Both the position numbers and the translations under genes were made by a program. Under the pieces are notes generated by a model. That model was not told where the DNA came from. It worked only from the letters and a program-made list of their open reading frames with translations, and did not search any database. A DNA stretch of 64,000 bases from Longimicrobiales bacterium (lineage in GTDB: Bacteria; Gemmatimonadota; Gemmatimonadetes; Longimicrobiales; Gaopeijiaceae), in contig CBDBCF010000001.1 in assembly GCA_965202985.1 (NCBI GenBank), positions 1,376,001 to 1,440,000 of the forward strand, in the 5' to 3' direction. Position 1 is the stretch's first letter. Each line of letters starts with the position of its first letter. This document shows positions 2,388 through 31,543 of the stretch, piece by piece.

Positions 2388-2451
2388 AAGCCGGGGCGGC
2401 GGGAATCGTGCAGGCGTGGAAGCCGGGGCGGCGGGAATCGTGCAGGCGTGG
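2388..2451. repeat. Perfect 32-bp tandem duplication AAGCCGGGGCGGCGGGAATCGTGCAGGCGTGG x2
   Basis: Copies at 2388-2419 and 2420-2451, read directly. Confidence 0.95.
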
Positions 2452-2553
2452 AACCCGCACCGGCGGGAAGAGGAAGATCTCAGCTCAGACGGGATACCGG
2501 GCCACGCCAGACAGATAAGCTCGCCCTCGCCCGAGGTTGTTCCACACCTTGGC

Positions 2554-2582
2554 TTGACCGCCCCCAAAACTACGGTTACCTT
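2554..2582 (+). promoter_or_regulatory. Putative sigma70 promoter for the ParB-nuclease-SNF2 operon
   Basis: TTGACC (2554-2559), 17-bp spacer, TACCTT (2577-2582), about 70 bp upstream of the ATG at 2652. Confidence 0.5.
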
Positions 2583-2651
2583 GCGGGGACCAAGGCGTTC
2601 CCGCTACATTCACCAAGTCTCTGTTCCTCCAACTTTCCGCGAGGCTGCCCA

Positions 2652-3680
2652 ATGTCAGAGAGTTACACGATGCTGGACGTCAACGAGATCGAATTCGACA
2701 CCGACAATCCGAGGATCAAGAAGGCGCTCGAGAAATACGGCGATCGCTTGACCGCCGAGAGGATCCACTTCGCCCTAACCACAGCGGGTACTGCCGCGAC
2801 CGGGGCTTCGTCGTACGCAAGTCTGCGTGATTCCATCCGAGCCGCACGTGGAATCACGATTCCCATTACGGTCGTCACTCGAAACGGCGGCTACACATGC
2901 ATTGACGGTAACACAAGACTCGCCGTCTACAAGGACTTCGTGAGCAAGGGCGAGGAAGGCGACTGGACCACCATCAAGACGATCGTCAGAAGCAACGCAA
3001 AACCCGAGGACATCGAGCGTATTCGAGTATCTGCCCACTTGGTGGGGGCTCGGGAGTGGCCAGCGTACGAGAAGGCGCGCTATTTGCACTACCTCCGCAA
3101 CCAGGAGTTTATGGATTACGGACAAATGATTCAGCTGTGCGGCGGCAACAAGACTGACATAGAACGTCAGATAGAGGCCTACCATGACATGAACCGATTC
3201 TATCGTGATATGGTAGATGACCAAGCATTCAAAATCGATAGATTCAGTGGCTTCGTGGAATTGCAGAAGCCCGGCGTTAAGGAGGCAATATGGACGGCGG
3301 ATTTCGACCTACAGGATTTCGGCAAATGGATCCGGGACGGCAAGATACTTCGGCTACGCGACGTTCGCTGGCTTCCCAAGGTTCTTGACGACCCAGATGC
3401 TAAACAGATATTTCTCGAAGGCGGCCCTAGATCCATAGAGGAAGCAATAAATCTCCTGCGACAGCGCGCAAGGACCACTGCCGCCGAAGCAGGTACCACA
3501 CTGACATCAGCGTCACTATTCCAGTTGGCCGAGGCGCTAGCTCGCAAGGTTGATGAAATGCCCTACTCCGAGGTTCGTGCACTCAAGACGCGGGAGCGAT
3601 CGGAGTTCGACGAAGGCATCGCGACATTGGAACACTTGTCCGCACGTCTCACCGAGCTTCTAGACGATGTCGGAGAGTGA
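2652..3680 (+). CDS. ParB/Srx-fold N-terminal domain protein (paralog 1)
   Basis: MSESYTMLDVNEIEFDTDNPRI...GITIPITV...CIDGNTRLA (ParB/Srx NPR and DGxxR motifs), followed by WPAYEKA. Start moved from 2376 to the ATG at 2652, where the lower-GC coding character begins. Confidence 0.8.
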   Translation: MSESYTMLDVNEIEFDTDNPRIKKALEKYGDRLTAERIHFALTTAGTAATGASSYASLRDSIRAARGITIPITVVTRNGGYTCIDGNTRLAVYKDFVSKGEEGDWTTIKTIVRSNAKPEDIERIRVSAHLVGAREWPAYEKARYLHYLRNQEFMDYGQMIQLCGGNKTDIERQIEAYHDMNRFYRDMVDDQAFKIDRFSGFVELQKPGVKEAIWTADFDLQDFGKWIRDGKILRLRDVRWLPKVLDDPDAKQIFLEGGPRSIEEAINLLRQRARTTAAEAGTTLTSASLFQLAEALARKVDEMPYSEVRALKTRERSEFDEGIATLEHLSARLTELLDDVGE

Positions 3681-4110
3681 CGTACACCGGTCGCTGGTGC
3701 TCCGAACGGCCAACGCCGTTAGGCAGAAATGCACGCAGTTAGCCACACTCATCACGGACGTACTGGCCAAACCTGGGGATCCTGTTCCGCCACTGGTGGA
3801 GGGATATCGGCCAGACTTATATGGTACTGGCCGTGACAATAGGCTGGTAGTACTTGGTGAGATCGAAACGCTGGCAAGTATGCGATCTCGTCACACCGTT
3901 AGGCAGATTGGAACATTTCTGTGCTATCTCGAGAAACTTTCACTGCATGGATGCCTTGTCTTGGCGGCCGAGGGAAACGGAGCCGATCGTGCTAAGGCGC
4001 TGCTAGGCTTTCTCGTTGCAGAACACTCTATTGAAGTCACTAGTATACTGGTGTACGATGGCTTGGACTTCTGGCACCTTGGCGGTACGGCTCGATGGCG
4101 TTTGCTCTAA
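3667..4110 (+). CDS. Small hypothetical protein, possible PD-(D/E)xK restriction-endonuclease fold
   Basis: 147 aa; MSESDVH...GYRPDLYG...LVVLGEIET resembles a PD...ExK motif with K changed to E; overlaps both neighbours. Confidence 0.55.
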   Translation: MSESDVHRSLVLRTANAVRQKCTQLATLITDVLAKPGDPVPPLVEGYRPDLYGTGRDNRLVVLGEIETLASMRSRHTVRQIGTFLCYLEKLSLHGCLVLAAEGNGADRAKALLGFLVAEHSIEVTSILVYDGLDFWHLGGTARWRLL

Positions 4111-5585
4111 GGAGACCTCCCCGCCTTGTTGGCAAGCACGATCCCTATCCGTATCAACTTGATGCTGTGCGGGCAATCAGAGGGTTGGAGTACGCAGCCA
4201 TCTTCCATGAACAGGGACTCGGGAAGACGAAGATCGCCATTGATTTGATCCACTCCTGGCTGGAGCAAGATGTGGTTGACACCGTATTCGTAATCACTAA
4301 GAAGTCGTTAGTGAGAAATTGGATGGAAGAAATACGAGCGCATTCGTACTTGACCCCTAGAGTACTATCGACAGATCGGCACCATAACAGCATCGCACTG
4401 AATTCACCAGTGCTCGTCTATGTTCTGAACTACGAAGTGGTTATGGGTAATGCGGAGCTACTTCGGTCCTTCTTGGCAACATGTCGCGTGGCTGCAATCC
4501 TGGACGAGAGCCAGAAGATCAAGAACCCCGAGTCCAGGTTGGCAATATGCTTTCATGACCTTGCAGACTGCTTCGATCGTCGCATAATCATGACAGGAAC
4601 GCCAGTTGCCAATCGCCCATTTGATATTTGGTCCCAAATTAGGTTCTTGGATGGCGGAACGGCACTCGGTAGATCGTTTGCGGCCTTCAGGGCAAGCCAT
4701 GATCTACCGAACAGCGATATTGCAGGTGGCGAATATGGATCTCAGCTGGCGAGGATTATGAATAGAATTCGACAGTTTTCGGTACGGGACACCAAGAGAT
4801 CAGCGGGCATAGAACTTCCAGACAAGACGATCCTCAGTCATCGGGTCGCTTTGGCACCAAGACAGAGAGAGGTGTACGGTGCATATCGAGACCGGCTACG
4901 GCACGACGTATTGGTAGAAGACGGTGAAATGAGGATCGACAGTGCCGAAGAGCTTCTCAAATTGTTGTTGCGGCTCGTTCAATGTGCATCCAATCCGGTC
5001 TTGGTCGACCCGACTTATGATGAGAAGCCGGGCAAGTACAGTAAGCTGAAGGAGATTGTTGGCAGTAGCGATGAAGATGGCAAGGTAATAGTTTGGAGTA
5101 ATTTTGTGGATAATGTAGAATGGTTGGCGAAAGCATTTCAGGACTATCGGCCAACGATTGTTCATGGGCGAATGGCTCTTAGGGACAGAGATCGAGCAGT
5201 AGCGACGTTCAAACATAACGATCGCTGTCGGCTACTTGTTGCCACTCCCGGTGCCGCCAAGGAGGGACTGACACTTACAGTAGCCAATCAAGCGGTGTTT
5301 TATGACCGGAGCTTTAGTCTGGATGACTACATTCAGGCTCAGGACAGGATACATCGCATATCTCAGGTGCGGACCTGCTTTGTTCATAATATGATAGCAG
5401 ACGGTACCATCGACGAGTGGGTTGACCTCTTGCTGAACGCGAAACACCAAGCGGCCCAACTGGCGCAAGGGGACATTGATGAGGCGGAGTTTGGAGCCGC
5501 TTTTGCGTACAACCTACACGAGGCATTGCGGGACATCTTGGCTCCGTCAGAGGGATTAGACGGAACGAAGGACGTCTTTGGGTGA
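4095..5585 (+). CDS. Stand-alone SNF2-family (SF2) helicase/translocase
   Basis: Walker A HEQGLGKT, Walker B ILDESQ, motif III TGTP, AAKEGLTLTVAN, motif VI QAQDRIHRISQ. Confidence 0.92.
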   Translation: MAFALRRPPRLVGKHDPYPYQLDAVRAIRGLEYAAIFHEQGLGKTKIAIDLIHSWLEQDVVDTVFVITKKSLVRNWMEEIRAHSYLTPRVLSTDRHHNSIALNSPVLVYVLNYEVVMGNAELLRSFLATCRVAAILDESQKIKNPESRLAICFHDLADCFDRRIIMTGTPVANRPFDIWSQIRFLDGGTALGRSFAAFRASHDLPNSDIAGGEYGSQLARIMNRIRQFSVRDTKRSAGIELPDKTILSHRVALAPRQREVYGAYRDRLRHDVLVEDGEMRIDSAEELLKLLLRLVQCASNPVLVDPTYDEKPGKYSKLKEIVGSSDEDGKVIVWSNFVDNVEWLAKAFQDYRPTIVHGRMALRDRDRAVATFKHNDRCRLLVATPGAAKEGLTLTVANQAVFYDRSFSLDDYIQAQDRIHRISQVRTCFVHNMIADGTIDEWVDLLLNAKHQAAQLAQGDIDEAEFGAAFAYNLHEALRDILAPSEGLDGTKDVFG

Positions 5586-5904
5586 CCTGCTCCGCCACAT
5601 CTCATCCTTGAATCCTCGGCCCCCAGCGGCAACCGCGCGGGGCCAGGAGCCCGTGGAACATTAGCCCGTCCTTTGTTGTTTGGAGGTTGAGGGGGGCGGG
5701 TAGATTGGGATGGGGATACCGCCGTCGATGCCGGGGGGGCAGAGGGGTCAAGCGACAACATAGATGAAGCTGTCGGAGGCGTCCGTGGTTAATGTCGAGG
5801 GGGTTCGGGCGCGAGGCTTGTCCTGTGGTTTGGAGTCGGGCCGTCGGTGATCGTGGAGCGGGGTCCAGCTAGTTCAGTGCCTTCCCGAACGAGGAAAAGC
5901 ACTG

Positions 5905-7100
<1,196 letters not shown>

Positions 7101-7107
7101 ACGCCCG

Positions 7108-7883
7108 ATGAGCCCCGAGCAGCCCTTCGTCGGGGAACGGCGCCGAGGTCGACTGCATGCTCAAGGAACTGCACATGCCCACCATGAAGGACCTGTGGCG
7201 GCCGTTCGCCGACCGGGCCGAGCGCGAACGCTGGTCGCTCGACAACTTCGACTTCGGCCGCCTGCCGGACTGTCCGAACGCTTGGTCCGCGGCCTCGCCA
7301 ACGGAGGCGACTGGATCGACGACGGCCACAACGTCGTCGTCCTCGGCCCGCCCGGCACCGGCAAGAGCCATCTCGCCGCCGGCATCGGCCTCGCCCTCGT
7401 CGAGCGCGGCTACCGCGTCCTCTACGCCCGAGCCACCGACCTCGTGCGGAAGCTCCAAGCCGCACGCCGCGACCTCGCCCTCGAGGCCGGGATCCGACGA
7501 CTCCACAAGTTCCACCTCGTTGTCCTCGACGACATCGCATACGTCGACAACGGACCGCGACGAGACCAGCGCGCTCTTTCGAACTCGTCGGCACGCGCTA
7601 CGAGTACCGCTCGCTCTTGGTCACCACCAACCAGCCGTTCAGCGCATGGGAGCGCATCTTCGCCGACAAGGCCATGACGGTCGCCGCCGTCGACCACCTC
7701 GTCCACCACGCCCACGTCCTCACGCTCGAAGGCGAGAGCTGCCGCCGACAAGAAAAAAGCCGCACGGCTACCCCCGCACAGCACGCCGGCACCACCGACG
7801 ACGACGCGGGCCGTCCCCGAACGCGCCTTCACAGCCCGCCTGGTGACGCTGCCCCCCGCCGCGACAGGGCGGAAGTCCGTTGA
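7108..7883 (+). pseudogene. istB: IS21 helper AAA+ ATPase remnant
   Basis: AAGGAG RBS and ATG at 7108; fragments LKELHMPTM...LDNFDF, NVVVLGPPGTGKSHLA (Walker A), LVVLDDIAY (Walker B), TTNQPFSAWERIF...AAVDHLVHH spread over several frames. Confidence 0.9.
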
Positions 7884-8344
7884 ACGGCCCCGAATCCGGG
7901 GGTACCACAGGTCGGGTCCGGTCGAATTCTACCTCTAGACGGCCACCAGCAGCCTCAAAACCCGGCCAAGACCGGCCAACTCCTCCGGGGTCACGCCCCT
8001 TCGTCGGCTGTGTGCCACCTCCGAGACCCCGTTCCGCAACCGCCCAAGCCCTCGCCTTGACCCGCTCCCCTTCCGCTACCATCGTTCCCGTCACACGATC
8101 CCGACGGTCTCATCTTGATTGTCGCCAGGGTTTCATTCTGATTGTCGCTCTAGACAGCCTTTGGGTCGTGCGTAAGTCAGTCATCCGTAACGACTTATGA
8201 CTCCCGCGGCGTGAAGTTTCGTCTGGCGGGCTCAGGCGCAGTGAACGATCGCTAACCCATCGTCCACGGATCAGGTCCTGCTCCCAACCGGCGGCGGGCG
8301 GTTTTGGCGACCCCCCTTTAAGAAGGTGCCTGACGCCTTCAGGG

Positions 8345-8373
8345 TTGCTTGGAGCCTTCGGCTACGTTAGAGT
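8345..8373 (+). promoter_or_regulatory. Putative sigma70 promoter for the ParB-radical SAM-HATPase operon
   Basis: TTGCTT (8345-8350), 17-bp spacer, TAGAGT (8368-8373), upstream of the ATG at 8512. Confidence 0.35.
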
Positions 8374-8511
8374 GTTGACCGTCCGACACTCCTTCCATCC
8401 TCCGGCAAGGCAAGCCGACCTAACAGGTGCCTTTCATCTTCTCGTCAATCATCCTGTCGAGACGCCGGCTCCCCGGGCCGTCTGGCGCCTTTACTTGAAA
8501 CAGCTCACTCC

Positions 8512-9519
8512 ATGACCCAACCAGAAATTACGATCCACAGCACAAGGATACCCTGCACGGACGACAAATGGCGAACTGACCGGCTGGTCTTCCTGAGCGA
8601 AAACCCGCGCGTCTATTCCTCCATTGCTGACATTCCTGACTTCGACGACCTGCATGATGACCAGAAGCAACAGGTGATCTATCGTCAGCTGCTCAAAGAA
8701 CGGAGCGTCAGGACGCTGATTCCAGACATTCGTGATAACGGCGGCTTGATCGAACCAATTCTCGTGCGTGCCGACACACGAGAAGTTGTCGAGGGTAATT
8801 CCCGTCTCGCTGCCTACAGGCACCTGTATAGCGAATCCAAAGACGAAAAATGGAATACTATTCCCTGCCGACTCGTATCAAGCCTCACCGATGACCAGCT
8901 AGCAGCGCTGCTTCACTCTATACATGTCAAAGGCAAGACGTCCTGGACAACGTATGAGAAGGCCCACTTTACCTATCTCCAACACAAGAAGGGCAAGAGA
9001 ATCGAAGATATCGCAAAGCTGTTTTCGATATCAACATCGAAGGCCTATCAGGATGTCCGGATTATAAAAGCGATGAAAGAGAACAGTGACTCCGATCGTG
9101 CGCACTTCAGCTACTACAGCGTACTCAAGACAAGCTTGAGGAAGGAACTCCGGGACAACACCCAGCTGGAGTCTGCACTCTTGTCGATGATTCGGCGTCC
9201 TGACGACGGTGGCGATCACCATCCGCCATTTACAGCCCAGAACCTACGCGACCAACTGCCAGTGGTACTTCGGAAGCCCAAGATTCTACGCAAGTTCGTG
9301 AAAGGGGAGATCACCCTTGACACCGCTCATGACAGAGCCAAAATCAGCGATACTCAGTCTAAAATGAAGCGAGTTCGTGGACTTCTTAATGACGTGACGC
9401 ACGAGGAGCTACGAGAACTTGGTCAACCAGCCAAGAAAGCCGTTGACTACGAGTGCCGCAAGGTACAGAAGGAGCTCTCCCGCATCCAGAAAATGCTCGC
9501 CAAGATGATGTCCTCATGA
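8512..9519 (+). CDS. ParB/Srx-fold N-terminal domain protein (paralog 2) with HTH-like region
   Basis: ENPRVYS...GGLIEPILV...VVEGNSRLAA, WTTYEKA, then IEDIAKLFSISTSKA (HTH-like). Confidence 0.82.
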   Translation: MTQPEITIHSTRIPCTDDKWRTDRLVFLSENPRVYSSIADIPDFDDLHDDQKQQVIYRQLLKERSVRTLIPDIRDNGGLIEPILVRADTREVVEGNSRLAAYRHLYSESKDEKWNTIPCRLVSSLTDDQLAALLHSIHVKGKTSWTTYEKAHFTYLQHKKGKRIEDIAKLFSISTSKAYQDVRIIKAMKENSDSDRAHFSYYSVLKTSLRKELRDNTQLESALLSMIRRPDDGGDHHPPFTAQNLRDQLPVVLRKPKILRKFVKGEITLDTAHDRAKISDTQSKMKRVRGLLNDVTHEELRELGQPAKKAVDYECRKVQKELSRIQKMLAKMMSS

Positions 9520-11141
9520 GTGGTCATCGCATCCTGCTTGTAGAACCCGGATACAGAAACAAGTACCCACCGCTTGGCCTGATGAAGATAGCCGCGTATC
9601 ACGGACTCGAAGGCCGTGGGGATACGGTTAGATTTGTAAAAGGCGAGAACTCAGAAGTACTTGCTGAGGTCTGGGATCGAGTATACGTTACAACGTTGTT
9701 TAGTTTTGAATGGACCCGGACAGCACGAGCGATCGATTTTGCAATCCGAGCCGCTGGTGGCCAAAACGAACGGGTATTTGTGGGCGGTATTGCGGCATCT
9801 TTGATGCATGACGATTATGTGTCAGAACCTCGATGGTCGGGCGTTAGATTTGTTAAAGGATTGCTAGACGGTCCTCCCGCGACCGCCTTAATGTTGTCGG
9901 AAGACAACTGTGATTTTGGCGCGGACGACGTATCGAGTCTGCCAATAGAAAGAAACGTGCCAGATTACGGAATACTAGACCACATCGAATACAAGTACCC
10001 CGTACACGATGCCTACTTTGGTTACGCTTCGCGCGGATGCGTCCGAAAATGCTCCTTTTGCGGCGTTCCGGCGTTGGAAGGTGGACTTCGAGAGATGCCG
10101 CCGCTTTCGAACCTAGTGCACGGAATCGCGCAGGTACATGGACCCAAGAAGGATCTGATATTGATGGACAATAATGTCACAGCATCTTCCCGATACAAAG
10201 AGATTATCGCTGAAATCAGGGACCTGGGCTTTGTCCGTGGTGCCCGGGTAGAGGCTAACGGCACGAAGCCAGCCGTCAAGCGGCGGGTGGACTTTAATCA
10301 GGGCGTAGATGCCCGTATTCTGGCGAAATCTCCGATGTACCTTCGAGAAATGGCTACGATATGCATTGATCCGCTGAGGATCGCCTTTGATCATCTAGGC
10401 GTTCGGAGAGTCTATGAGACGGCAATAAACATGGCGGCAGATAACGGTATTACGTCTCTGTCCAACTATATGCTCTACAATTTTATGGATACACCAATTG
10501 ACTTGTACACACGAATGGCTTTGAACATTCAACTTAATGAGAGTCTTGGAATTCGCATCTGGTCGTTTCCGATGCGATATCAGCCGGTTACGCTTCGGGA
10601 TCGTTCTCACGTCGGCAAGAACTGGAATTGGTATTACCTCCGTTCATTTCAGATTATGCTACAAGCTACTCACGGAGTTGTGAGTGGCAACCCAGCATTC
10701 TTTCGCCGAGCTTTCGGGGAAGACCAAGATCGCTTTCTCGAACTTCTTGGAATGCCGCACGCGTTTATTTTCTTCCGAGAATACTACGAGGCTGGCGGCG
10801 GCACGGCGGTGCGAGAAGAATATGAGGCATTGCGTAAACGGCTGACGTCTAGTCAGCGGAAGGAATTGCTTGGCATGGTGCTTGGCCAACATGTGCATCG
10901 AGGCCGTGACGAGTTTCTCAGAAGAACGAAGGATCGACAAATTGACCGTCAAGTGAGAAAGATCTTACGTTTTTATGCGCTGGACACCAAAGAACGATCC
11001 AAGCTCGAGGGTCAGAAAATTTTGGCAGACACTGAAGACCTAGCGCCCGGCATGCCGGATGCAGAACGCAGGGTCGAGGACGCAGGGTTGTACGACGACG
11101 GACCGGCAACCGGTGGTCGCCTAGTTGCGTTAGCGACATGA
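9516..11141 (+). CDS. Radical SAM enzyme with N-terminal cobalamin-binding-like domain
   Basis: ATGA overlap with the upstream stop; ILLVEPGYRNKYPPLGLMKIAAYH...VFVGGIAASL N-terminal domain; RGCVRKCSFC (CxxxCxxC, 10038-10061); LMDNN; VDFNQGVDAR. Confidence 0.9.
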   Translation: MSGHRILLVEPGYRNKYPPLGLMKIAAYHGLEGRGDTVRFVKGENSEVLAEVWDRVYVTTLFSFEWTRTARAIDFAIRAAGGQNERVFVGGIAASLMHDDYVSEPRWSGVRFVKGLLDGPPATALMLSEDNCDFGADDVSSLPIERNVPDYGILDHIEYKYPVHDAYFGYASRGCVRKCSFCGVPALEGGLREMPPLSNLVHGIAQVHGPKKDLILMDNNVTASSRYKEIIAEIRDLGFVRGARVEANGTKPAVKRRVDFNQGVDARILAKSPMYLREMATICIDPLRIAFDHLGVRRVYETAINMAADNGITSLSNYMLYNFMDTPIDLYTRMALNIQLNESLGIRIWSFPMRYQPVTLRDRSHVGKNWNWYYLRSFQIMLQATHGVVSGNPAFFRRAFGEDQDRFLELLGMPHAFIFFREYYEAGGGTAVREEYEALRKRLTSSQRKELLGMVLGQHVHRGRDEFLRRTKDRQIDRQVRKILRFYALDTKERSKLEGQKILADTEDLAPGMPDAERRVEDAGLYDDGPATGGRLVALAT

Positions 11142-11142
11142 G

Positions 11143-12675
11143 GTGCAAGCGTTGGCACGGCTAGAGATCGAACGATACGTCGGCTCCTCGGAGCCGGTTT
11201 TGGGTGATCAGGTCCTTGGGATCATTACTTCTGCAATGTACGACAGTCCCTTGGCGGTGTATCGGGAGTATATTCAGAATTCCGCTGACGCATTGGCTAG
11301 TTTGGATTTGCGTAGCCGGGGAGCGGTAGACGTGTCAGTCGACCCGCGTCGACAGCGCATTGAGATTCGTGATAACGGCCCCGGACTGTCCGAAGAAATG
11401 GCCGTTCGTACTTTAGTGCCGATTGCGACTAGCCGAAAGCGGCAAGAAGGCGGCCGGGGGTTTCGGGGCATAGGTAGGTTGTGTGGCTTAGCGTTCGCGG
11501 AGTCGGTTACGTTCCGTACGCGGGCAGACGGTGCCCAGGACGTAACGCAGATCAAGTGGAGCGGACCGGAACTCCGGGCTCATATAGGACGAACTGGGCA
11601 TACGGCGCATTCGGTGCGAGAGTGCGTAGAAGTAACGACAGAGGCCGGGGATGGGTTTCCCGAGCATTTTTTTTCGGCGACCGTGGAGGGGGTGCATCGG
11701 CATGCAGCTGGAGCTCTGCTGAATCGCGAAACGGTTCGGGCATACATAGGCGAGGTATGCCCAGTGCCAATCGCCGAGTCATTTCCTTTTGTGGCGGATG
11801 TCAGGAGATTGTTTGCTGATGGTGAGACGCCCCTAGCGCTGACAGTATCGTTGACCAAAGATGCGAGACCGATTTGTCGACCGCTAGGGAAAGAGCTGCG
11901 TCTCTCAATGCATCGTGTTGATCGCTTTAGAGATTTTGAGGAGATTCGGATATCGTCGCTCGATAAGGCTACGATTGCGGCAGTCGGATGGATTGCTCAT
12001 TCGTCATATATGGGTGCGTTGCCGAAGAGGTTGGGCATTAGGGGCATGCGAGTCCGTGCCGGGAACATTCAGATCGGTGGTGAGGACGTATTTGACCATC
12101 TTTTTGATCAGGAACGCTTTAATCGGTGGTGTGTAGGTGAGATTCATGTTACGGATAGTCGAATTGTACCAAATGGTCGCCGGGATTATTTTGAAGCAAG
12201 TCCACATCTGAGGAATCTAGAGAATCACCTGTCGGTCTTATTCCGAAACATTACGGCACGGTGCCGCCTAGCATCCAAGAAACGTAATCGTATGCGGAGA
12301 TTTGAGGCAGACGTGGACAACATCGAAAATTGGTATCGTCTTGTGGCATCGGGGTGGCTTGCTCAGAATGAAGCATTAAAGTTAGCTATCAAGGTTCGAG
12401 AACAAGCGAGTCGGCTAGCGGAGAAGATTGAGGCATTAGACCGAGGGGCCGGGAACGTAGCAACCAGACTTCGAGCAGTCACAGATGATCTACGGGATTT
12501 CAACGGACCCAGTCAACGGCCGTTAGTGCCCATGACGAAAGCGGAACAACGAGCGTACCAACGCGCATTTCTTGCGATCATTGAGGCGACGAACTCGCCG
12601 CGGACGGCACTGAGGGCAATTGAAGCTGTGGTTGATAGAATGGGATCGGAGGAGAGGCGGAGGAGAAAGGTGTAG
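11143..12675 (+). CDS. GHKL (Hsp90/MutL/MORC-like) ATPase
   Basis: Bergerat motifs YREYIQNSADA (ExxxNxxD), IRDNGPGL (DxGxG), GFRGIGRLCG; then an S5-like segment GMRVRAGNIQIG...VGEIHV...PNGRRDYFE and a helical C-terminus. Confidence 0.88.
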   Translation: MQALARLEIERYVGSSEPVLGDQVLGIITSAMYDSPLAVYREYIQNSADALASLDLRSRGAVDVSVDPRRQRIEIRDNGPGLSEEMAVRTLVPIATSRKRQEGGRGFRGIGRLCGLAFAESVTFRTRADGAQDVTQIKWSGPELRAHIGRTGHTAHSVRECVEVTTEAGDGFPEHFFSATVEGVHRHAAGALLNRETVRAYIGEVCPVPIAESFPFVADVRRLFADGETPLALTVSLTKDARPICRPLGKELRLSMHRVDRFRDFEEIRISSLDKATIAAVGWIAHSSYMGALPKRLGIRGMRVRAGNIQIGGEDVFDHLFDQERFNRWCVGEIHVTDSRIVPNGRRDYFEASPHLRNLENHLSVLFRNITARCRLASKKRNRMRRFEADVDNIENWYRLVASGWLAQNEALKLAIKVREQASRLAEKIEALDRGAGNVATRLRAVTDDLRDFNGPSQRPLVPMTKAEQRAYQRAFLAIIEATNSPRTALRAIEAVVDRMGSEERRRRKV

Positions 12676-13027
12676 ATTGGCATCCTCTGCTGTTTCATAT
12701 GGAGAATTGGAAATCCAGCTTGCCGCATACATCGCTCGAGATGTGCGTCTGCAGGGACATCAGATCCATCTGGTACGCTTGCACCGTTTCCGGGGCGATC
12801 CGCGACGGGTCCAGCAAGCTCGTCCGGCCACGTCCGCTTCCGGGGTCGCAGACAACTCCGGGCGGCCCGTCAGGTACGCCACGTTACCCGATTCGGAGTC
12901 GCCGAGGTGCGGGCGCTTGATCCCGGGGGGCTTGCGTACCGGCGACTGCCCGTGAACTATGGACCCAGCCACTTCGGGAGCCCTTACGGGCCCGTCTCGA
13001 TAAGTTCCTCCCAATCCTATCAGTCAA

Positions 13028-14977
13028 ATGCCGTTCGCTCTGCTATCCGTCAGGCCATCCATAGGGAGCGTCTTCCTTGGGAGCACGCTCCGAACCACCG
13101 CCCTCGCTGTAACGGCCGCTGCGTTCACCAGCACCATCACGACTTCCCTTGCGTCCCCAGCCGCCACCTCCGCCCAGACCCACCCCGTTGTCGAGAACGG
13201 CCAGGCCCAGGTCGTCCCCGCCTTTGCCGACTCGACCGCGTGGATTCGGCACGAACTCTGGGTCGAGACCGAGTTCGACACCGACGGGGACGGTCGGCTG
13301 GACCGGGTGCACGCGGACGTGACGCGACCGGCGCAGACCGACGCCGACGGGCTCAAGGTGGCCGTGGTGTACGAGACCAGCCCCTACTACTCGGGCACGG
13401 CGGGGATCGACTTCGACCACTTCTGGAACTTGCGTCAGGAGGTGGGTGAAGCGCCGCCGGAGCGGAACCCGTATCCGGCCACGATTGGCCATCGTGCCAG
13501 CCAGCCGGTCATCTCGCGGTCGCATGTGGCCACTTGGGTGCCGCGGGGATTCGCGGTCATGCACTCGCAATCGCCGGGGACGGGGCAGTCCCAGGGGTGC
13601 CCAACCGTGGGCGGGGCCAACGAGTCGCTAGCGCCCAAGGCGGTGATCGACTGGCTGAACGGGCGGGCGCGGGGCTTCTCCACGGTGGACGGGGACGAAG
13701 AGGTGGAGGCGTACTGGGCCACGGGGAAGGTCGGCATGACGGGCACGTCCTACAACGGCACGCTGCCCTTGGCGGCCGCCACGACGGGCGTGGACGGGCT
13801 CGAGGCGATCATCCCCGTGGCGCCCAACACGTCGTACTACCACTACTATCGATCCAACGGGCTGGTGCGGTCGCCGGGCGGGTACCCGGGCGAAGACATC
13901 GACGTGTTGTTCGACTTCATCTTCAGCGGCTTCCCCGAGTCGCGGGACTATTGCGTCGCCCAGGTGCGCGAGGCAGAAATGCGGCCGAACCAGGATCGAG
14001 CGACGGGCGACTACAACGACTTCTGGGCGGGGCGCGACTACCTCAACCACGTGGACGGCGTGAAGGCGGCAACGCTGATGAGCCACGCATTCAACGACTG
14101 GAACGTCATGCCCGAGCACAGCTTCCGGATCGCCGAAGCGCTGAAGGCCAACGGCGTGCCCGTGCAAGTGTACTATCACCAAGGGGGCCACGGCGGTCCG
14201 CCGCCGTTGGAGCTCATGAACCGCTGGTTCACGCGCTACGTGCTGGGCGTCGAGAACGGCGTGGAGGATGACCCGCGCGCCTGGATCGTGCGCGAAGGCG
14301 ACGACCGCGAGCAGCCCACGCCCTACGCCGCCTACCCGAACCCCGAGTCCGAAGGCGTGGCGCTGCATCCGACCGGCGACGGCAACTGGACGGGCGTGTT
14401 GTCGTTCGCCGCAGACGGAGCGGGACCGGAAGCGGACGCCGGGGCGGGGCTCGGTGCGCTGGTCGACAACTTCTCGTTCGGTGGCGGCGACTTGGCGGCA
14501 GCCGAGTGGTCGAACCACCGCCTGCTGTACGCGACTCCCGTCTTGCGCGAGGACGTGCATTTGTCGGGCGTGGCCAAAGTGCGGGTTCGGGTGGCGGCGG
14601 ACGCGGCGGCGGCCAACCTGTCCGTGTGGCTGGTGTCGTTGCCGTGGACCAACAGCGAGTCGATCAACGACGACGTGATCACGCGAGGCTGGGCCGATCC
14701 CCAGAACGCCGGCGCACAAGACATCTCGGCGCCGCGCGGCGGAAGCGACCTCGGGCCGGGCCAGTTCGTCGAGATGGAGTTCGACCTGCAGCCCGACGAC
14801 CAGATCGTTCCCGCGGGCGCCCGCATTGGCCTCATGATCTTCTCCAGCGACAAGGACTTCACGTTGCACCCCGATCCGGGCACTGCGCTGGAAGTCGACT
14901 TGAGCGGCACGAGCATCGAGTTGCCGGTCGTCGGCGGGCGTCGAGCGCTGGCGCGGGCCTTGCGGCCAGTGAGCTGA
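13028..14977 (+). CDS. Secreted Xaa-Pro dipeptidyl-peptidase (S15, CocE/PepX family)
   Basis: Signal peptide; VETEFDTDGDG; nucleophile motif GTSYNG; HAFNDWNV; HQGGH. Confidence 0.88.
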   Translation: MPFALLSVRPSIGSVFLGSTLRTTALAVTAAAFTSTITTSLASPAATSAQTHPVVENGQAQVVPAFADSTAWIRHELWVETEFDTDGDGRLDRVHADVTRPAQTDADGLKVAVVYETSPYYSGTAGIDFDHFWNLRQEVGEAPPERNPYPATIGHRASQPVISRSHVATWVPRGFAVMHSQSPGTGQSQGCPTVGGANESLAPKAVIDWLNGRARGFSTVDGDEEVEAYWATGKVGMTGTSYNGTLPLAAATTGVDGLEAIIPVAPNTSYYHYYRSNGLVRSPGGYPGEDIDVLFDFIFSGFPESRDYCVAQVREAEMRPNQDRATGDYNDFWAGRDYLNHVDGVKAATLMSHAFNDWNVMPEHSFRIAEALKANGVPVQVYYHQGGHGGPPPLELMNRWFTRYVLGVENGVEDDPRAWIVREGDDREQPTPYAAYPNPESEGVALHPTGDGNWTGVLSFAADGAGPEADAGAGLGALVDNFSFGGGDLAAAEWSNHRLLYATPVLREDVHLSGVAKVRVRVAADAAAANLSVWLVSLPWTNSESINDDVITRGWADPQNAGAQDISAPRGGSDLGPGQFVEMEFDLQPDDQIVPAGARIGLMIFSSDKDFTLHPDPGTALEVDLSGTSIELPVVGGRRALARALRPVS

Positions 14978-14988
14978 CGCGGCTAGAC

Positions 14989-16230
14989 GTGGCTGGCCCC
15001 GGGGTTCGCACCTACCGGTTCGTCCGGGGATGGTTCAACGGCGCCTCCCTCCACGAGAACTGGGGGCAAGACGGCGACGACCCGGACAAACGACCCGGCG
15101 CGGCGGATCTGGACATTGACATGCCCGCGCTGCGAAAAGGCACCTGGCCGCCTCGAATTCCGGGCGTCCGCACCGAGACGCGGATGATCTGGGGCGGGGC
15201 GAACGATCAGGACCGAGACTCCGCCGGTCCCGTCATGGCGCGCTGGTATTCCCCTACATCTCCGGCCGACAACGGCCCGCTTCCGGCTTGGCTGCTGCTT
15301 CACGGGGCCGCCGTCCAGGGTCCCGACCATCCGGCGCTGATGCGCTTCGCGGCGGCGCTGGCGTACTCGGGAAGCGTCGTGCTGATTCCGGAGATTTCGG
15401 GCTGGAGTCGGCTGGACCTGAACCCGGAGCATGCGGACGGACCGGTGGCACGGGCGCTGGAATACCTCGCTGGGAACCCCGGCGTCCTGCCTGGCGGGGT
15501 GGTCTTGGCGGGGTTCTCGTTCGGTTGCCCCCAGGCCGTTCGGATCGCGACGGACTTGGCCGGCGCCGGGCACATCCGGGGCGTCGTCGGGTTCGGCGGG
15601 TACTGCGACTTGAGCACGGCGGTGCGCTTCGGACTCGCGGGCGAGTACGTGTGGCGTGGCCGGACGTGCCGCGCCCAGCCCGATCCCTACGGGCGCTGGG
15701 TCCTGGGCGGCAACTACTTGGAGCCTCCGGTGTCCGACGCCCTGCTCAGGTTGGCCGCCCTTGCCGGTGCGCGCGGGGTCATGGCCTGGGAGCCCTACTA
15801 CGACGACGCCAAGGAGGCGCTCGCACGCGCCATGCCGCCCGACGGCCGCCGCCTCTTTCGCGTGTTCGCTCCCCCGGCCAGCGCCGAGCCCGAGCCCGAA
15901 GAAGCCGCCCGAGCCGCCGCGTCGCTGGCCCGTGCCGCCCACAGCGCACATCCTCTGCTGGTCTTGCCTCGGTCGTTCGACGGCGGGGCGCTGCCCCCTA
16001 TCCATCTGCTGCACGGCCGGGGCGACCCGCTCGTCCCGTTCACCGAGACGCTGGCCTTGGAGCGCCGTCTTCTGGAGGCTGGCGTTCCGGGCGTCGCAAC
16101 CACGGTCACCGGCCTGATCGCACACGCCCGCGAATCCGGCCGGATGGCGGCCCAGCCCTTGGAGGCGCTACGGTTCCTGCGTGCCATGCGCAACCTCATG
16201 TCCCTGCAACTTCGTCCCATTCGCCCATGA
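14989..16230 (+). CDS. Alpha/beta-hydrolase-fold protein
   Basis: LLHG...HPAL, GFSFG nucleophile elbow, LLHGRGDPLVP, C-terminal His (LIAH). Start taken as the GTG at 14989 after the PepX stop (uncertain). Confidence 0.7.
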   Translation: MAGPGVRTYRFVRGWFNGASLHENWGQDGDDPDKRPGAADLDIDMPALRKGTWPPRIPGVRTETRMIWGGANDQDRDSAGPVMARWYSPTSPADNGPLPAWLLLHGAAVQGPDHPALMRFAAALAYSGSVVLIPEISGWSRLDLNPEHADGPVARALEYLAGNPGVLPGGVVLAGFSFGCPQAVRIATDLAGAGHIRGVVGFGGYCDLSTAVRFGLAGEYVWRGRTCRAQPDPYGRWVLGGNYLEPPVSDALLRLAALAGARGVMAWEPYYDDAKEALARAMPPDGRRLFRVFAPPASAEPEPEEAARAAASLARAAHSAHPLLVLPRSFDGGALPPIHLLHGRGDPLVPFTETLALERRLLEAGVPGVATTVTGLIAHARESGRMAAQPLEALRFLRAMRNLMSLQLRPIRP

Positions 16231-19200
16231 CTTCGTCCCATCGCCCTTCGTCCCATCGCCCCACGACAACGCTCAGCACGGTCGCACCCCGAGCCGCCTT
16301 CGCCACCGCTCTCGCCCTGGTTCTTGCCGGCGTCGCCCCGACAGTCCCGGTCCTGCCCGGCGTCCCGGCCGGCCATGGCGCCGCCCAAACAACCTCCCGG
16401 CCGACCGCAACGACCACGCCAGCCCCAACCACCGAACCCCTCGCCACCGCCCAGCTCGACGGCCTGCGCTTCCGCAACATCGGCCCGGCGGTCATGAGCG
16501 GGCGGATCGTGGACCTGGCCGTCGTCGAGTCCGATCCGACCAAGTTCTATGTAGCGTCGGCCACCGGCGGCGTCTTCAAGACGGCGGACAACGGCATCAC
16601 CCTGGCGCCCGTGTTCGAGAGCGAACGCACGCACTCCGTGGGCGCCATCGCTGTACATCAAGTCGACACGGCCACGGTCTGGGTCGGCACCGGCGAGCGC
16701 GCCAACCGCCAAAGCTCGTCCTGGGGCGACGGCGTCTATCGCAGCGACGACGGGGGCGCCACGTGGACCCATGCGGGGCTCCCGGAGAGCCGTCACATCG
16801 GTCGCATCGCGCTTCACCCGGCCGATCCCGACATTGCGTATGTCGCCGCCATGGGGAATCTGTGGGGACCCAACCATGATCGCGGGCTGTACCGGACTCG
16901 CGACAAAGGCAATAGCTGGACGCGCATCCTGTTCGTGGACGAGAACACGGGCGTCGTGGACGTGGCGCTGGACCCGGACGACCCGCAGATCGTCTACGCG
17001 GCCGCCTATCAGCGCAGGCGCCGCCCCTGGGGCTTTCACGGAGGCGGTCCGGGGAGCGCGCTCTACCGCAGCATGGACGGCGGCGACACGTGGGAGCGGC
17101 TTTCGGGCCCCGGAGTCGCGCGCGGCTTGCCCGAAGGCGACCTGGGCCGCATCGGCATCTCCGTGTACCGAAGCGACCCGCGCATCGTCTATGCCAGCGT
17201 GGAGCAGGGCTGGCGGTACAATGCCTCGACCGCCTACACCGAACGCAGGGCCGGCGTCTATCGCTCCGACGACCGTGGCGACACGTGGGAGCACATGAGC
17301 GACTGGAACCCGCGTCCCATGTACGCAAGCCAGATCCTGGTCGATCCCGGCGACGACCAGCGCGTGTACATGGTCAACAGCTACTCCTTCTCGGACGACG
17401 GCGGCAGGACGTTCAGGGTCCCCCCGCAAAGCCTGCACGGCGACGACCGGCTTGTGTGGGTGAACCCCGCCGACTCGCGCCACGTCATGAAGGCCGACGA
17501 CGGTGGCCTGGGCATCTCCTACGACCGGGGACTCCACTGGTTGTACATCTCCGACTTGCCGGTCAGCCAGTACTACCGCGTGGCCGTGGACATGGCCACG
17601 CCCTACAACGTGTACGGCGGACTGCAGGACAACGGGTCGTGGATGGGTCCCAGCGAGACATTGCGCAGCGCGGGCATTCTCAACGGGGACTGGACCCGAC
17701 TGGGCGGCGGCGACGGCTTCCTCAACCTGCCCGACACCACGAACAACGCCATCGTCTATACAGCGTCCCAGTACCTGGGCCTTTCGCGCTTCGACTTGCG
17801 CACCGGCGAGCGCACCGCCATCCGCCCCGGCAACCCGCGGGGCCACATCGCCGCCCGGCGCAACTGGACGACCTGGAAGGACATCGGAACGCCCGAGGAA
17901 CAGAGGTTGGGGAACGCCATGGCGCCCGCGAACTGGGACGGGCCGTTCATCCTGTCGCCGCACGACGCCTCCACCTTGTACGCCGGCACCGACGTGCTTT
18001 GGAAGACGACGGACCGGGGCGACACGTGGCAGGCGCTGGGGAAGCTGACGTCGGACGTGGACCGCCGCTCGCTGCCGATCATGGGGCAGATGCCCGAAGA
18101 GTTCGTGCCCTCCCTGGACGACGGCATCCCGTACTACCCGACCATTTCAGCCATTGCCGAGAGCCCGTTGACCGAAGGGCTTCTGTACGCGGGCACCAAC
18201 GACGGGCGGCTGCACGTTTCCCAGGACGGCGGCGAGCGCTGGACACTGGTGCCTGTCGGCGCGTTCTCGGGGCTGCCCGAAGGCGCTTCGGTCTCGGGGC
18301 TGGAGCCGTCGCGCCACCGCGAAGGCCGCGCTTACGTCGTCTGGAACAACTACCGCAACGGCGATTTCGGCAACTACCTGTATCGCTCGGACGACTACGG
18401 GCGCACATGGGAAGCGCTGCCGGGCGACCTGCCCCCGCAGCGCGTGTTGCGCACGGTGCGCGAGGACCCGCGCAACGAGTCGGTCTTGTACCTGGGCGCC
18501 GAAGTCGGGCTGTTCTACAGCATGGACGGCGGCGCGCAGTGGACCGAGTTGCGAGGCGGCCTGCCGACGCTGGCGTTCAACGATCTGGTCGTCCATCCGC
18601 GGGACAACGACCTAGTGGTGGGCACGCACGGCCGAGGCGTGTGGATCCTGGACCAGATCAACGCGCTCCAGGAGTTGTCGCCCGAGATCGCGGCGTCGGA
18701 CGCGAGCTTGTTCACGGTCGAGCCGGCGATCCAGTGGCGACGCGCCGGCCGGGGAGTTCATGCCGGCGACGTGCACTTCCAGGGCGAGAACCCGCCCGTC
18801 GGCGCCGTGTTCGACTATTGGCTCGCCCAGGGCGCCGACAGCGGGGCCGCGACGTTGGTGGTGGAAGACGTGGGCGGCCGGCAGGTGGCCGTGCTGGAGG
18901 GCGGCGTTCGCCCGGGCGTGAACAGAGTTGTTTGGGACCTTCGACACCAGGTCGAGCCGCCCCGGCCCGCATCGTCGGAGCGCGGGCGGCGCTGGCAGGG
19001 GCCGCTGGTCGTGCCCGGCGAGTACGCCGTGCAGCTGGTCGTCGAGGGCACCGACGTTGGTGGAAGCCGAACCGTGGAAGTGCGCGACGATCCTCGCATC
19101 GACGCGACGCTGGCGGTCCGCGCGGCCTGGACGGCCGACCTGCTGGCGCTGGCGGAACTCGGGATGCGCGCCACGGACGGGCTGGACCGGGCGGGTCAAG

Positions 19201-19433
19201 CGCTGGAAGGCGTGGACGACGACGATGCCGGTCCGCGGGCCGTCAAGCTTCGCGACCTTGCGCGAGAGTTCGAGGAGATGGAGAGCCGCATCCGCCGCTT
19301 GGCCAACGCCGTCGAGGGCGCGGTGGCCCCGCCCACGGGGGACCAACGGTCGCGTCGGGCATACTACATGGAGATGCTGACGACCCTGGAAGCGGAGCTG
19401 GAAGCTTTGCCGGGGACTTCGGGGGGTCGTTAG
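16227..19433 (+). CDS. Secreted BNR/Asp-box (VPS10-like) glycosyl-hydrolase-like protein
   Basis: ATG at 16227 overlaps the upstream stop; signal peptide; LRFRNIGPAVMSGRIVD; many SxDGGxTW boxes; YGGLQDNGSW; GTHGRGVWILD; GENPP. Confidence 0.9.
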   Translation: MTSSHRPSSHRPTTTLSTVAPRAAFATALALVLAGVAPTVPVLPGVPAGHGAAQTTSRPTATTTPAPTTEPLATAQLDGLRFRNIGPAVMSGRIVDLAVVESDPTKFYVASATGGVFKTADNGITLAPVFESERTHSVGAIAVHQVDTATVWVGTGERANRQSSSWGDGVYRSDDGGATWTHAGLPESRHIGRIALHPADPDIAYVAAMGNLWGPNHDRGLYRTRDKGNSWTRILFVDENTGVVDVALDPDDPQIVYAAAYQRRRRPWGFHGGGPGSALYRSMDGGDTWERLSGPGVARGLPEGDLGRIGISVYRSDPRIVYASVEQGWRYNASTAYTERRAGVYRSDDRGDTWEHMSDWNPRPMYASQILVDPGDDQRVYMVNSYSFSDDGGRTFRVPPQSLHGDDRLVWVNPADSRHVMKADDGGLGISYDRGLHWLYISDLPVSQYYRVAVDMATPYNVYGGLQDNGSWMGPSETLRSAGILNGDWTRLGGGDGFLNLPDTTNNAIVYTASQYLGLSRFDLRTGERTAIRPGNPRGHIAARRNWTTWKDIGTPEEQRLGNAMAPANWDGPFILSPHDASTLYAGTDVLWKTTDRGDTWQALGKLTSDVDRRSLPIMGQMPEEFVPSLDDGIPYYPTISAIAESPLTEGLLYAGTNDGRLHVSQDGGERWTLVPVGAFSGLPEGASVSGLEPSRHREGRAYVVWNNYRNGDFGNYLYRSDDYGRTWEALPGDLPPQRVLRTVREDPRNESVLYLGAEVGLFYSMDGGAQWTELRGGLPTLAFNDLVVHPRDNDLVVGTHGRGVWILDQINALQELSPEIAASDASLFTVEPAIQWRRAGRGVHAGDVHFQGENPPVGAVFDYWLAQGADSGAATLVVEDVGGRQVAVLEGGVRPGVNRVVWDLRHQVEPPRPASSERGRRWQGPLVVPGEYAVQLVVEGTDVGGSRTVEVRDDPRIDATLAVRAAWTADLLALAELGMRATDGLDRAGQALEGVDDDDAGPRAVKLRDLAREFEEMESRIRRLANAVEGAVAPPTGDQRSRRAYYMEMLTTLEAELEALPGTSGGR

Positions 19434-19475
19434 GTTGCCCGCCCGGCCCCCCGCACAACCCACGGAGAGCACATC

Positions 19476-23697: not shown

Positions 23698-23703
23698 AGA
23701 GTC

Positions 23704-24165
23704 GTGTGCGCTATTGTTGACGCCAATGTCGCGTCGGCGATGTTTCGACCAGATCGCTCGAATGCCGCGTCGGCCTTCTTCGAGTGGATCAATGCCGGGT
23801 CCGGTCGATTGATTGGCGGAGGCAAACTGCGTACGGAACTTGGTTTATTGGATTCGTTCAGGGAGTGGCAACGAGAAGCGATTCTTGCGGGACGTATTCG
23901 CAACTACAGCGACGATGAAATCGAAATACAAACGGGTATCGTCAAGAACACAGGATTGTGTCGGTCGGACGACGAACACATCATTGCATTGGCTCAGGTC
24001 AGTGGTGCTCGCTTGTTGTATTCGCATGACAAGCGGTTGCATGAGGATTTTAGAAACCCGGAATTGGTCAAGAAACCGCGTGGAAAAATCTACTCAACCC
24101 TAACTGGCACAAAGCTTCGAGACAGCCACAAGCAACTTCTTCGCCAGAGTTCGTGCAGGAAGTAG
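23704..24165 (+). CDS. PIN-domain-like protein
   Basis: AIVDANV at the N-terminus; SDDEHIIALA...LLYSHDKRL acidic PIN pattern. Confidence 0.7.
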   Translation: MCAIVDANVASAMFRPDRSNAASAFFEWINAGSGRLIGGGKLRTELGLLDSFREWQREAILAGRIRNYSDDEIEIQTGIVKNTGLCRSDDEHIIALAQVSGARLLYSHDKRLHEDFRNPELVKKPRGKIYSTLTGTKLRDSHKQLLRQSSCRK

Positions 24166-30048: not shown

Positions 30049-30070
30049 CCCGGCTTCCTGGCGAGACGAC

Positions 30071-31522: not shown

Positions 31523-31543
31523 CGTAGACCGAGGTCGGTAGCA

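Follow-up and report, generated by a model that had tools for sequence, protein, structure and literature searches.

Organization of the six-gene locus

The window, a 64,000-nucleotide stretch of a Longimicrobiales bacterium (GenBank assembly GCA_965202985.1, contig CBDBCF010000001.1, positions 1,376,001 to 1,440,000), contained six co-oriented genes on the forward strand, which together form a real and widespread system, so far undescribed, whose radical S-adenosylmethionine (SAM) protein is a candidate DNA-writing enzyme of a new kind. The first gene (2652..3680) encoded a ParB-like protein of 342 aa, ParB1, composed of a ParB/Srx N-terminal domain with NPR and DGNTR motifs, a helix-turn-helix (HTH)-like region, and a C-terminal helical tail. 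It was followed by a small protein of 147 aa with a putative PD-(D/E)xK restriction-endonuclease fold (3667..4110), carrying PD..GEIE in place of the family motif PD..GEAK, and by a stand-alone SWI2/SNF2 ATPase of 496 aa (4095..5585) with GLGKT and DESQ motifs. The second ParB-like protein, ParB2 (8512..9519; 335 aa), had a ParB/Noc/KorB-like N-terminal domain (NPR, EGNSR), an HTH, and C-terminal helices. The radical SAM enzyme (9516..11141; 541 aa), the candidate DNA-modifying enzyme, was composed of a B12-binding-like Rossmann domain (residues 1–135), a barrel bearing the CxxxCxxC motif, and a helical C-terminal part. The last gene (11143..12675) encoded a GHKL ATPase of 510 aa, in which the Bergerat motifs are intact and an S5-like region is present; it is the predicted partner of the radical SAM enzyme. 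The ParB2 and radical SAM genes overlapped by ATGA, and the GHKL gene started 1 bp past the radical SAM stop codon. A degraded IS21-family element with istA and istB remnants (approximately 5747..8156, forward strand) was located inside the operon and lies outside the system.

The coordinates and common orientation of the six open reading frames (ORFs) agreed with the first-pass annotation, as did its statement that they are lower in GC than the backbone (0.51–0.55 compared with 0.68–0.69 for the genome). The GC3 values of the six genes were 0.51–0.64, compared with 0.85–0.88 in two flanking host genes. No classical DNA methyltransferase had been recognized in the set, and PADLOC, Pfam and NCBIfam gave zero matches to one among the six proteins.

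Conservation and gene units in close relatives

A GTDB genome scan with the radical SAM enzyme confirmed 388 relatives, of which the best 80 were analysed; with three plasmid loci they formed a set of 83 close loci. Many of the 80 came from symbiont-type genome assemblies, and the proportions given here are not a census. All six genes co-occurred in 54 of the 80 loci, spread over 9 phyla, which bore out the expectation that the genes travel together in other genomes. The gene order of the window was found in 41 of the 54 loci, and two were partly inverted. The remaining 11 (11/80 of the whole set) had the order rSAM-GHKL-ParB-Nuc-SNF2-ParB. The window order was also found at L110, where the radical SAM enzyme was only ~40% identical.

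The first-pass annotation had described the locus as two triplets. This 3+3 organization was an artefact of the IS21-like insertion. The gap between the SNF2 and ParB2 genes was at most 64 bp in 50 of 52 relative loci compared with 2.9 kb in the window, and the rearranged loci split mostly into 2+4 genes; the insertion is therefore secondary. Judged from these gene orders, the natural units appear to be the radical SAM–GHKL pair and the ParB-nuclease-SNF2-ParB module.

The association was also found in the reciprocal direction. When the ParB2 alignment was used as the query, 8 of 8 retrieved viral-contig loci carried a radical SAM enzyme of the family; five of these loci had been seen before. 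On viral contig L281, from the ParB2-alignment search, a distant, short, phage-like radical SAM gene overlapped ParB1, and no GHKL gene was present. The family was large (at E 1e-10, 7,859 of the 8,000 proteins scored) and rare per genome: it occurred in 2 of 300 sampled genomes of one phylum, both with partner modules. The co-occurrence scan of these 300 genomes also gave one lone ParB-like match without a module (G103), with too few matches to inform, and nothing rests on it. A DNA search of E. coli, which is a weak test, gave no match to the family.

Other partners replaced or were added to the four-gene module in several close loci. These were a 360-aa NurA-like protein (E 0.004, a weak match) with a 560-aa ATPase and a second GHKL (14 loci), a second GHKL with an unknown 336-aa protein (12 loci), and a DndB-HEPN fusion (7 of 83 loci). 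The plasmid loci had a DGQHR/DndB gene upstream, and a plasmid of Novosphingobium aromaticivorans DSM 12444 bore the arrangement DGQHR-radical SAM-GHKL. A protein of 770 aa was encoded at L019 (7411-9726) and L001 (13183-15492). Besides an unknown N-terminal part, it had a DndB/DGQHR domain and weakly matched HEPN_Swt1; it may be an effector, encoded by a single gene, that works with the radical SAM enzyme. At L098 (genome G051, 9995-19706), the radical SAM–GHKL pair was followed by two further GHKLs and a PIN-like gene, and a cNMP-binding/TIR ORF resembling Pycsar/CBASS effectors overlapped one GHKL on the opposite strand.

A candidate modifier position in distant relatives

A profile search for distant radical SAM relatives yielded 374 cluster representatives at E 1e-30. 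With an alignment of ~40%-identical relatives, 80 of 553 confirmed metagenome loci were retrieved, and these were combined with nine others into a set of 89 loci of metagenome, viral and relative origin. Two further partner types were found in this set. In 22 of the 89 loci, PbeA (PADLOC 8e-211) and PbeC (8e-154) were followed by a 150-aa gene, which was assigned to PbeD/DndE by position only, with no profile match, and the radical SAM gene stood directly behind this small gene in 19 of the 22. In 18 of the 89 loci, a UvrD-like helicase, an unknown protein, DrmA (3e-173), DrmB (2e-58), and a NERD-helicase were encoded, and the radical SAM gene was directly behind the NERD-helicase in 18 of 18. 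A GHKL gene was present in 16 of 17 rows of this DISARM-like type on the radical SAM tree described below.

In the accessible text of PMC10853773, the modification component of CxC/Pbe systems is given as phosphorothioation genes or cytosine methylases, and a neighbourhood of GajB, DrmA, and DrmB carries a cytosine methyltransferase in the available part of the Tiamat preprint (bioRxiv 10.64898/2026.09.30.754977). Among the 66 flanking proteins of the Pbe-like and DISARM-like loci that were scanned, a subset of the flanking ORFs, neither a DNA methylase nor DndC was detected; the motif scan for methylases was crude and overlooked one methylase detected by Pfam. Beyond the operon edge at L109/L275, a second GHKL, an ABC-three-component system, and prophage genes were located. 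Because the published partners of these modules are DNA modifiers and none was found here, the radical SAM enzyme appears to stand in the modifier's place. This position, read from gene order, is the strongest new evidence for a role in defence or DNA modification. In one Pbe-type locus (L270), a conventional B12-binding radical SAM gene (DUF4070; 8658-10151) was located right after the radical SAM–GHKL pair.

In a FastTree phylogeny of 163 radical SAM enzymes, to which long-branch warnings apply, the partner label changed 29 times (minimum possible 5; shuffled mean 65), which indicates that the modules were exchanged repeatedly. At least 15 changes of the ParB module were forced by the starred branches of this tree.

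Structure prediction of the radical SAM enzyme

The cluster motif of the radical SAM superfamily, CxxxCxxC, was formed by C175/C179/C182 and was present in 163 of 163 homologues. In a wide alignment, these three cluster cysteines were the only invariant ones. MiaB and RimO methylthiotransferases hold a second Fe–S cluster by extra conserved cysteines, and membership in that group was rejected on this ground. Prokaryotic viperin was also rejected, as the enzyme hit 0 PADLOC families at E 0.1 and has an extra N-terminal Rossmann domain.

When the predicted model (pLDDT 65) was compared with solved structures, AprD4 was the best full-length match (VIA Z 11.4, r.m.s.d. 4.2, 345 residues aligned), followed by MgmA (VIA Z 11.2); RimO, TsrM, and MiaB also matched. 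Foldseek placed OxsB at the top (E 6e-6) and also returned MiaB, MgmA, TokK, and TsrM. The N-terminal domain (residues 1–135) matched B12 domains with Z 8.4–9.5 and receiver domains with only slightly lower values of ~7.5–8.1. The best PDB sequence match was MgmA (E 0.019). The Pfam B12-binding match of the window enzyme was weak (E 0.047, below cut-off), and below-cut-off matches were found in 14 of 70 homologues. The enzyme matched the phage family phrog_9298 with an E value of 2e-35. As modelled, the architecture resembles that of radical SAM enzymes with a B12 domain, and the enzyme probably uses cobalamin. The host genome encodes two B12-binding proteins, which shows only that B12 use is possible.

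The GHKL ATPase and its modelled contact with the radical SAM enzyme

The GHKL ATPase matched HATPase_c_3 (Pfam, E 3e-10), and its catalytic residues E42, N46, D77, G79, and G81 were kept at 98–100% in close partners. It had been called MORC-like. The GHKL motifs and the S5-like region agreed with this name, whereas MORC membership was rejected, since the S5-domain signature GhXhhpXXRhl (PMC2292703, available in part) was found in only 3 of 112 partner GHKLs. The ATPase had also been grouped with the SNF2 protein and the nuclease. It was instead paired with the radical SAM enzyme, whose gene it adjoined in 81 of 83 close loci.

A complex model of the two proteins scored 0.65, with 0.00 for the best control; of 157 solved complexes, 116 attained this level, as did 2 of 215 mismatched pairs. 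The runs shared at least 93% of contacts, and the pLDDT of the partner was 81. In the model, enzyme residues 49–54 and 80–86 packed against GHKL helix 354–369, and the contact was located on the surface of the N-terminal domain (residues 2–4, 49–54, 80–86, and 131–134), away from the cluster-bearing barrel. Residues Q83, E85, and R86 of the enzyme and H355, R357, E360, and N361 of the GHKL ATPase were 88–96% conserved in the close clade, a value confounded by kinship. Direct binding of the GHKL ATPase by the radical SAM enzyme is supported by this model.

The ParB-like proteins, the nuclease, and the SNF2 ATPase

ParB1 matched a PHROG ParB-like family (E 0.003) and phrog_3694 (E 2e-8), and was a paralogue of ParB2 (27% identity, E 3e-10). 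Its NPR and DGNTR motifs were invariant in 19 aligned sequences, and in the ParB-like family as a whole NPR was found in 143 of 149 and [DE]GNxR in 146 of 149 members. The AF2 model of ParB2 (pLDDT 91) matched Noc, ParB, and KorB in Foldseek (E 2e-5 to 1e-4) and a pNOB8-like ParB with VIA Z 10.3 (r.m.s.d. 4.9, 210 residues aligned). It also matched sulfiredoxin (Z 9.5), SerK, and SbnI (range Z 7.7–9.5), which use ATP/ADP. The ParB/Srx fold with a GxxR motif was thus found by model for ParB2 and by homology for ParB1. The ParB-like proteins also gave weak PADLOC matches to PDC-M38A.

In an alignment of the nuclease family (A3), PD..E-x-K was present in 65 of 69 homologues and three were not resolved by the pattern; the window protein alone had E-I-E. 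From this substitution, the window nuclease may be inactive. The nearest named Atlas clusters of the 147-aa protein were PD-(D/E)xK families at 0.87, which is a lead only. Searches of the PDB by sequence returned no significant match for the alignments of the ParB-like proteins or of the nuclease, with Hjc at only E 1.3 for the latter. The SNF2 ATPase matched SNF2-rel_dom (E 1e-25) and Helicase_C (E 7e-18) in Pfam, and partially matched the helicase domains of ZorD and DpdE in PADLOC.

The 2.9-kb gap between the SNF2 and ParB2 genes contained the frameshifted IS21-like element (IstB_IS21 in Pfam, E 3e-21), with a GC content of ~0.70, end-like repeats near 5747 and 8156, and further copies elsewhere in the host genome. 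The segment 7990-8170 was repeated at several further sites of the genome, among them the IS21-like right end. In run X1, the summed contig depth was 385–1020 over the element and 26–63 over the six genes. Contigs from public runs matched the gene sequences with 0–2 differences in long pieces, and none spanned the IS; because these contigs reproduce the genes, the oddities of this copy are not assembly errors. Given the IS within the operon and the change in the nuclease motif, the window copy may have kept the marker and lost restriction. Its modifier pair may be intact and its effector crippled by the IS21 insertion and the nuclease K-to-E change, and the copy is possibly decaying.

Genomic setting and phage relatives

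The distribution in the host lineage was patchy, with the radical SAM gene in 1 of 60 relatives and 0 of 3 genomes of the genus. The two flanking host genes were conserved in all three same-genus genomes, and the slot between them (approximately 2397..13027 in the window, without strand) held different contents. In G001 it held an R-M-like pair of an N6/N4 DNA methylase split by ISL3 and a small nuclease-like ORF (by motif only, with no Pfam match), in G002 it was empty, and in G003 it held Schlafen-AlbA and ParA-like genes. The slot is a small variable cargo site. A direct repeat of ~25 bp (2394-2452), just upstream of the operon, was located at its left edge. Among 144 neighbours of the GTDB loci, 74 had no match, 12 were mobile-element genes, 11 were of defence type, and the rest were mostly housekeeping genes, in a count without a background control. 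Other defence systems were observed beside individual loci, including Tiamat (L103, 12098-17092, PADLOC E 0), the ABC-three-component system (L275, 3577-6893), and Cap15 (L030, 5228-5821).

Short (305–360 aa), stand-alone relatives of family phrog_9298 with a reduced N-terminal domain were observed in phages (L113, 5974-6891, MW660583.1; L114; L112). In LoVEphage, a shorter radical SAM relative adjoined Dam, cytosine-methylase, and PAPS-reductase genes. The short phage relative is possibly a phage DNA modifier or a mimic of the mark. A Dam gene was located within 3 kb of the short relative in 24 of 80 viral loci, a count given little weight because these loci are 75–100% near-copies.

Other features of the window and host genome

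A low-GC (0.52–0.55) pair at 22327-24165 on the forward strand encoded an AAA_21/AAA_15 ATPase with a DUF3696-like end and then a PIN-domain protein, and resembles an independent defence or toxin-antitoxin pair of ATPase and nuclease. Four forward-strand genes of ~60% GC at 27681-32611 had hydrophobic stretches and coiled-coil matches, with no confident Pfam family; we take their layout to be reminiscent of a MotA/MotB- or Zorya-like membrane cluster. Another region of the host genome (G000:C1, 1863700-1865556) held an array of 17 tRNA genes in ~1.9 kb.

Comparison with known systems

No named system was matched: PADLOC, NCBIfam, and Pfam gave no system-level match, and the NCBIfam matches were all below cut-off. 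The system was not described in the full-text literature searched, which left most subscription papers and some supplementary tables beyond reach, so that a table-level mention is possible; nor was it described in the accessible parts of PMC3226654, PMC10853773, PMC2292703, PMC5379612, PMC12926258, PMC12931638, and bioRxiv 10.64898/2026.09.30.754977.

Dnd with PbeABCD/CxC, as far as covered in PMC10853773, resembles the system in combining a modifier, an ATPase, exchangeable nuclease modules, and the ParB-superfamily protein DndB. Moreover, distant radical SAM relatives were located inside PbeA-PbeC operons and close relatives beside DndB/DGQHR genes. In contrast, the six window genes do not include DndA, C, D, or E, the ATPase is of the GHKL and not the ABC type, and the candidate modifier belongs to the CxxxCxxC radical SAM enzymes, a class called unrelated to DndC in the accessible text of PMC10853773. 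The main text of that paper did not pair radical SAM with Pbe; the term 'radical SAM' occurred twice, both in the DndC passage, and the supplement was outside this search. DISARM shares DrmA and DrmB, whose homologues were coupled to the radical SAM gene in the 18 wider-family loci. However, DISARM is defined with a DNA methylase, the window has no DrmA, B, or C, and in the DISARM-like relatives the radical SAM enzyme is accompanied by UvrD-like and NERD helicases, with no methylase found in the parts covered.

The Dpd system also combines DNA base modification with a ParB-like protein, DpdB, and an SNF2-type protein, DpdE; PADLOC gave partial matches to DpdE and, in relatives, to DpdB. These matches were domain-level only, however, and no DpdA/TGT, DpdC, or preQ0 synthesis genes were found among the six. 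The MORC/paraMORC restriction-modification (R-M) operons, as described in the available text of PMC2292703, share a GHKL ATPase with an S5-like region, an SWI2/SNF2 helicase, a nuclease, and lateral transfer as one operon. They differ in using DNA methylases and in the MORC signature; the words 'radical' and 'ParB' occurred 0 times in that text. The system thus resembles Dnd/Pbe, DISARM, Dpd, and MORC-type R-M in its working but fails their defining features.

Individual proteins also had known counterparts. The class I B12-dependent radical SAM enzymes TokK, TsrM, OxsB, and MgmA/QCMT and the non-B12 enzyme AprD4 share an N-terminal Rossmann domain, a barrel, and one cluster motif with the window enzyme, which was only 10–14% identical to them. 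In the part of a 2026 review that was available (PMC12931638), the reactions listed were methylation, ring contraction, and thioether formation, and phage was mentioned 0 times. The CTP-gated clamps ParB, Noc, and KorB share the ParB2 fold and the GxxR-type motif; here, in contrast, two paralogues flank a nuclease and a motor, and no ParA is encoded in the operon.

Discussion

The reading we somewhat favour, drawn from comparative sequence evidence, is a horizontally spread R-M-like operon in which the radical SAM enzyme, probably a cobalamin radical methylase, would self-mark host DNA and serve interchangeable restriction modules. The radical SAM enzyme would bind SAM and a [4Fe-4S] cluster, and its N-terminal domain would probably hold cobalamin. 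By a radical mechanism, in which an unactivated carbon would most likely be C-methylated, it would put the covalent self-mark on host DNA. The GHKL ATPase, docked on the N-terminal domain in the model, may be a DNA clamp, gated by ATP, by which the enzyme is delivered or positioned; an analogous scanning of DNA has been proposed for the DndD/CxC ABC ATPase in Dnd systems. The ParB1-nuclease-SNF2-ParB2 module would be the reader and effector: its ParB-like clamps, gated by nucleotide, would scan DNA together with the SNF2 motor, and its small PD-(D/E)xK nuclease would cut invader DNA that lacks the mark or bring about the death of the infected cell. This module would be interchangeable with Pbe, DISARM-like, NurA-like/ATPase, second-GHKL, or DndB-HEPN modules. 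A broader proposal, which we put forward only tentatively, is that the enzyme adds one more class of self-marking chemistry to methylation, phosphorothioation, and 7-deazaguanine. At least six interchangeable restriction modules, the DISARM-like and Pbe ones among them, would read this mark, and the short phage relatives would use it as counter-defence. The role in defence or DNA modification put forward in the first-pass annotation gained support from co-occurrence and the modifier position, while its functional split into two triplets did not stand.

Several observations weigh against the self-marking reading. The absence of a methylase was established only partially, as most DISARM-like loci are truncated upstream and only L109/L275 was covered to the operon edge. 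AprD4 was reported not to bind cobalamin (PMC12931638, in the part available), and the Pfam B12-binding scores stayed below cut-off; the enzyme may therefore not use cobalamin. No variable target-recognition domain was identified in the radical SAM enzyme, which is 62–71% identical across phyla. The interface residues were not conserved in distant partners or paralogous GHKLs. The GHKL gene was missing from 17 of 18 Pbe-type tree rows and from several ParB-module loci, and hence is not obligatory; since the Pbe-type loci, most of which lack it, have their own ABC ATPase, the enzyme may need some DNA-handling ATPase and not specifically GHKL. The flanks did not resemble strong defence islands, with the 11 defence-type genes among 144 neighbours mentioned above. 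Two of the three annotated phage records had no annotated modification neighbours beside the short relative, and in 2 of 80 GTDB loci the radical SAM gene had no tracked partner.

The first-pass annotation had left the product as either a self-mark on DNA or an antiviral nucleotide. An enzyme that acts on free nucleotides, as do OxsB and viperin, would make an antiviral analogue or a signal, which ParB/Srx-fold or DndB-like proteins would bind to activate the nuclease module. OxsB, the top Foldseek match, acts on deoxyadenosine nucleotides, and several partner modules have a nucleotide-binding ParB/Srx fold, as indicated by the GNxR motif of the ParB-like family and the DndB Pfam matches; the lack of a recognizable target-recognition domain also fits such an activity. 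However, in the Pbe and DISARM-like sets the partners are machines of the DNA helicase/nuclease or scanning type, which in published systems go together with DNA modifiers; no ParB/Srx-fold gene was found in these two modules, and no viperin model was matched in PADLOC. A free-nucleotide product is therefore unlikely, and the self-mark on DNA is favoured.

The enzyme could also act without self-marking, either by damaging or tagging invading DNA for its partners or by modifying a partner protein to arm or restrain it, as in the glutamine methylation by MgmA. That MgmA is a protein C-methylase, and is both the second structural match and the best PDB sequence match, is consistent with a protein substrate, as is the modelled direct binding to the GHKL ATPase. 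Nevertheless, the modelled contact avoids the barrel that bears the cluster, and the enzyme was found beside at least six unrelated partner sets, often without GHKL, for which a shared DNA substrate is a simpler explanation than a protein substrate; we consider tagging or protein modification doubtful. It is improbable that the genes are not one system and that a DNA-repair or stress enzyme of the spore-photoproduct-lyase kind, or an independent defence gene, collects beside modules in mobile islands: the frequent change of partner modules, the two loci without a tracked partner, and the stand-alone phage relatives would fit, but the tight co-oriented coupling in 19 of 22 Pbe-type and all 18 DISARM-like loci and the reciprocal ParB2 search do not, and flanks made up mostly of non-defence genes mean that simple island crowding does not explain the pairing.

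If the radical SAM enzyme marks DNA, it would represent a new epigenetic chemistry and a new class of writer in bacterial immunity. A B12 requirement could explain why E. coli screens missed the system. Such marking would also account for DISARM-like and Pbe/CxC operons without methylase or Dnd genes, and would mean that DISARM-like and Pbe effectors can pair with a different mark.

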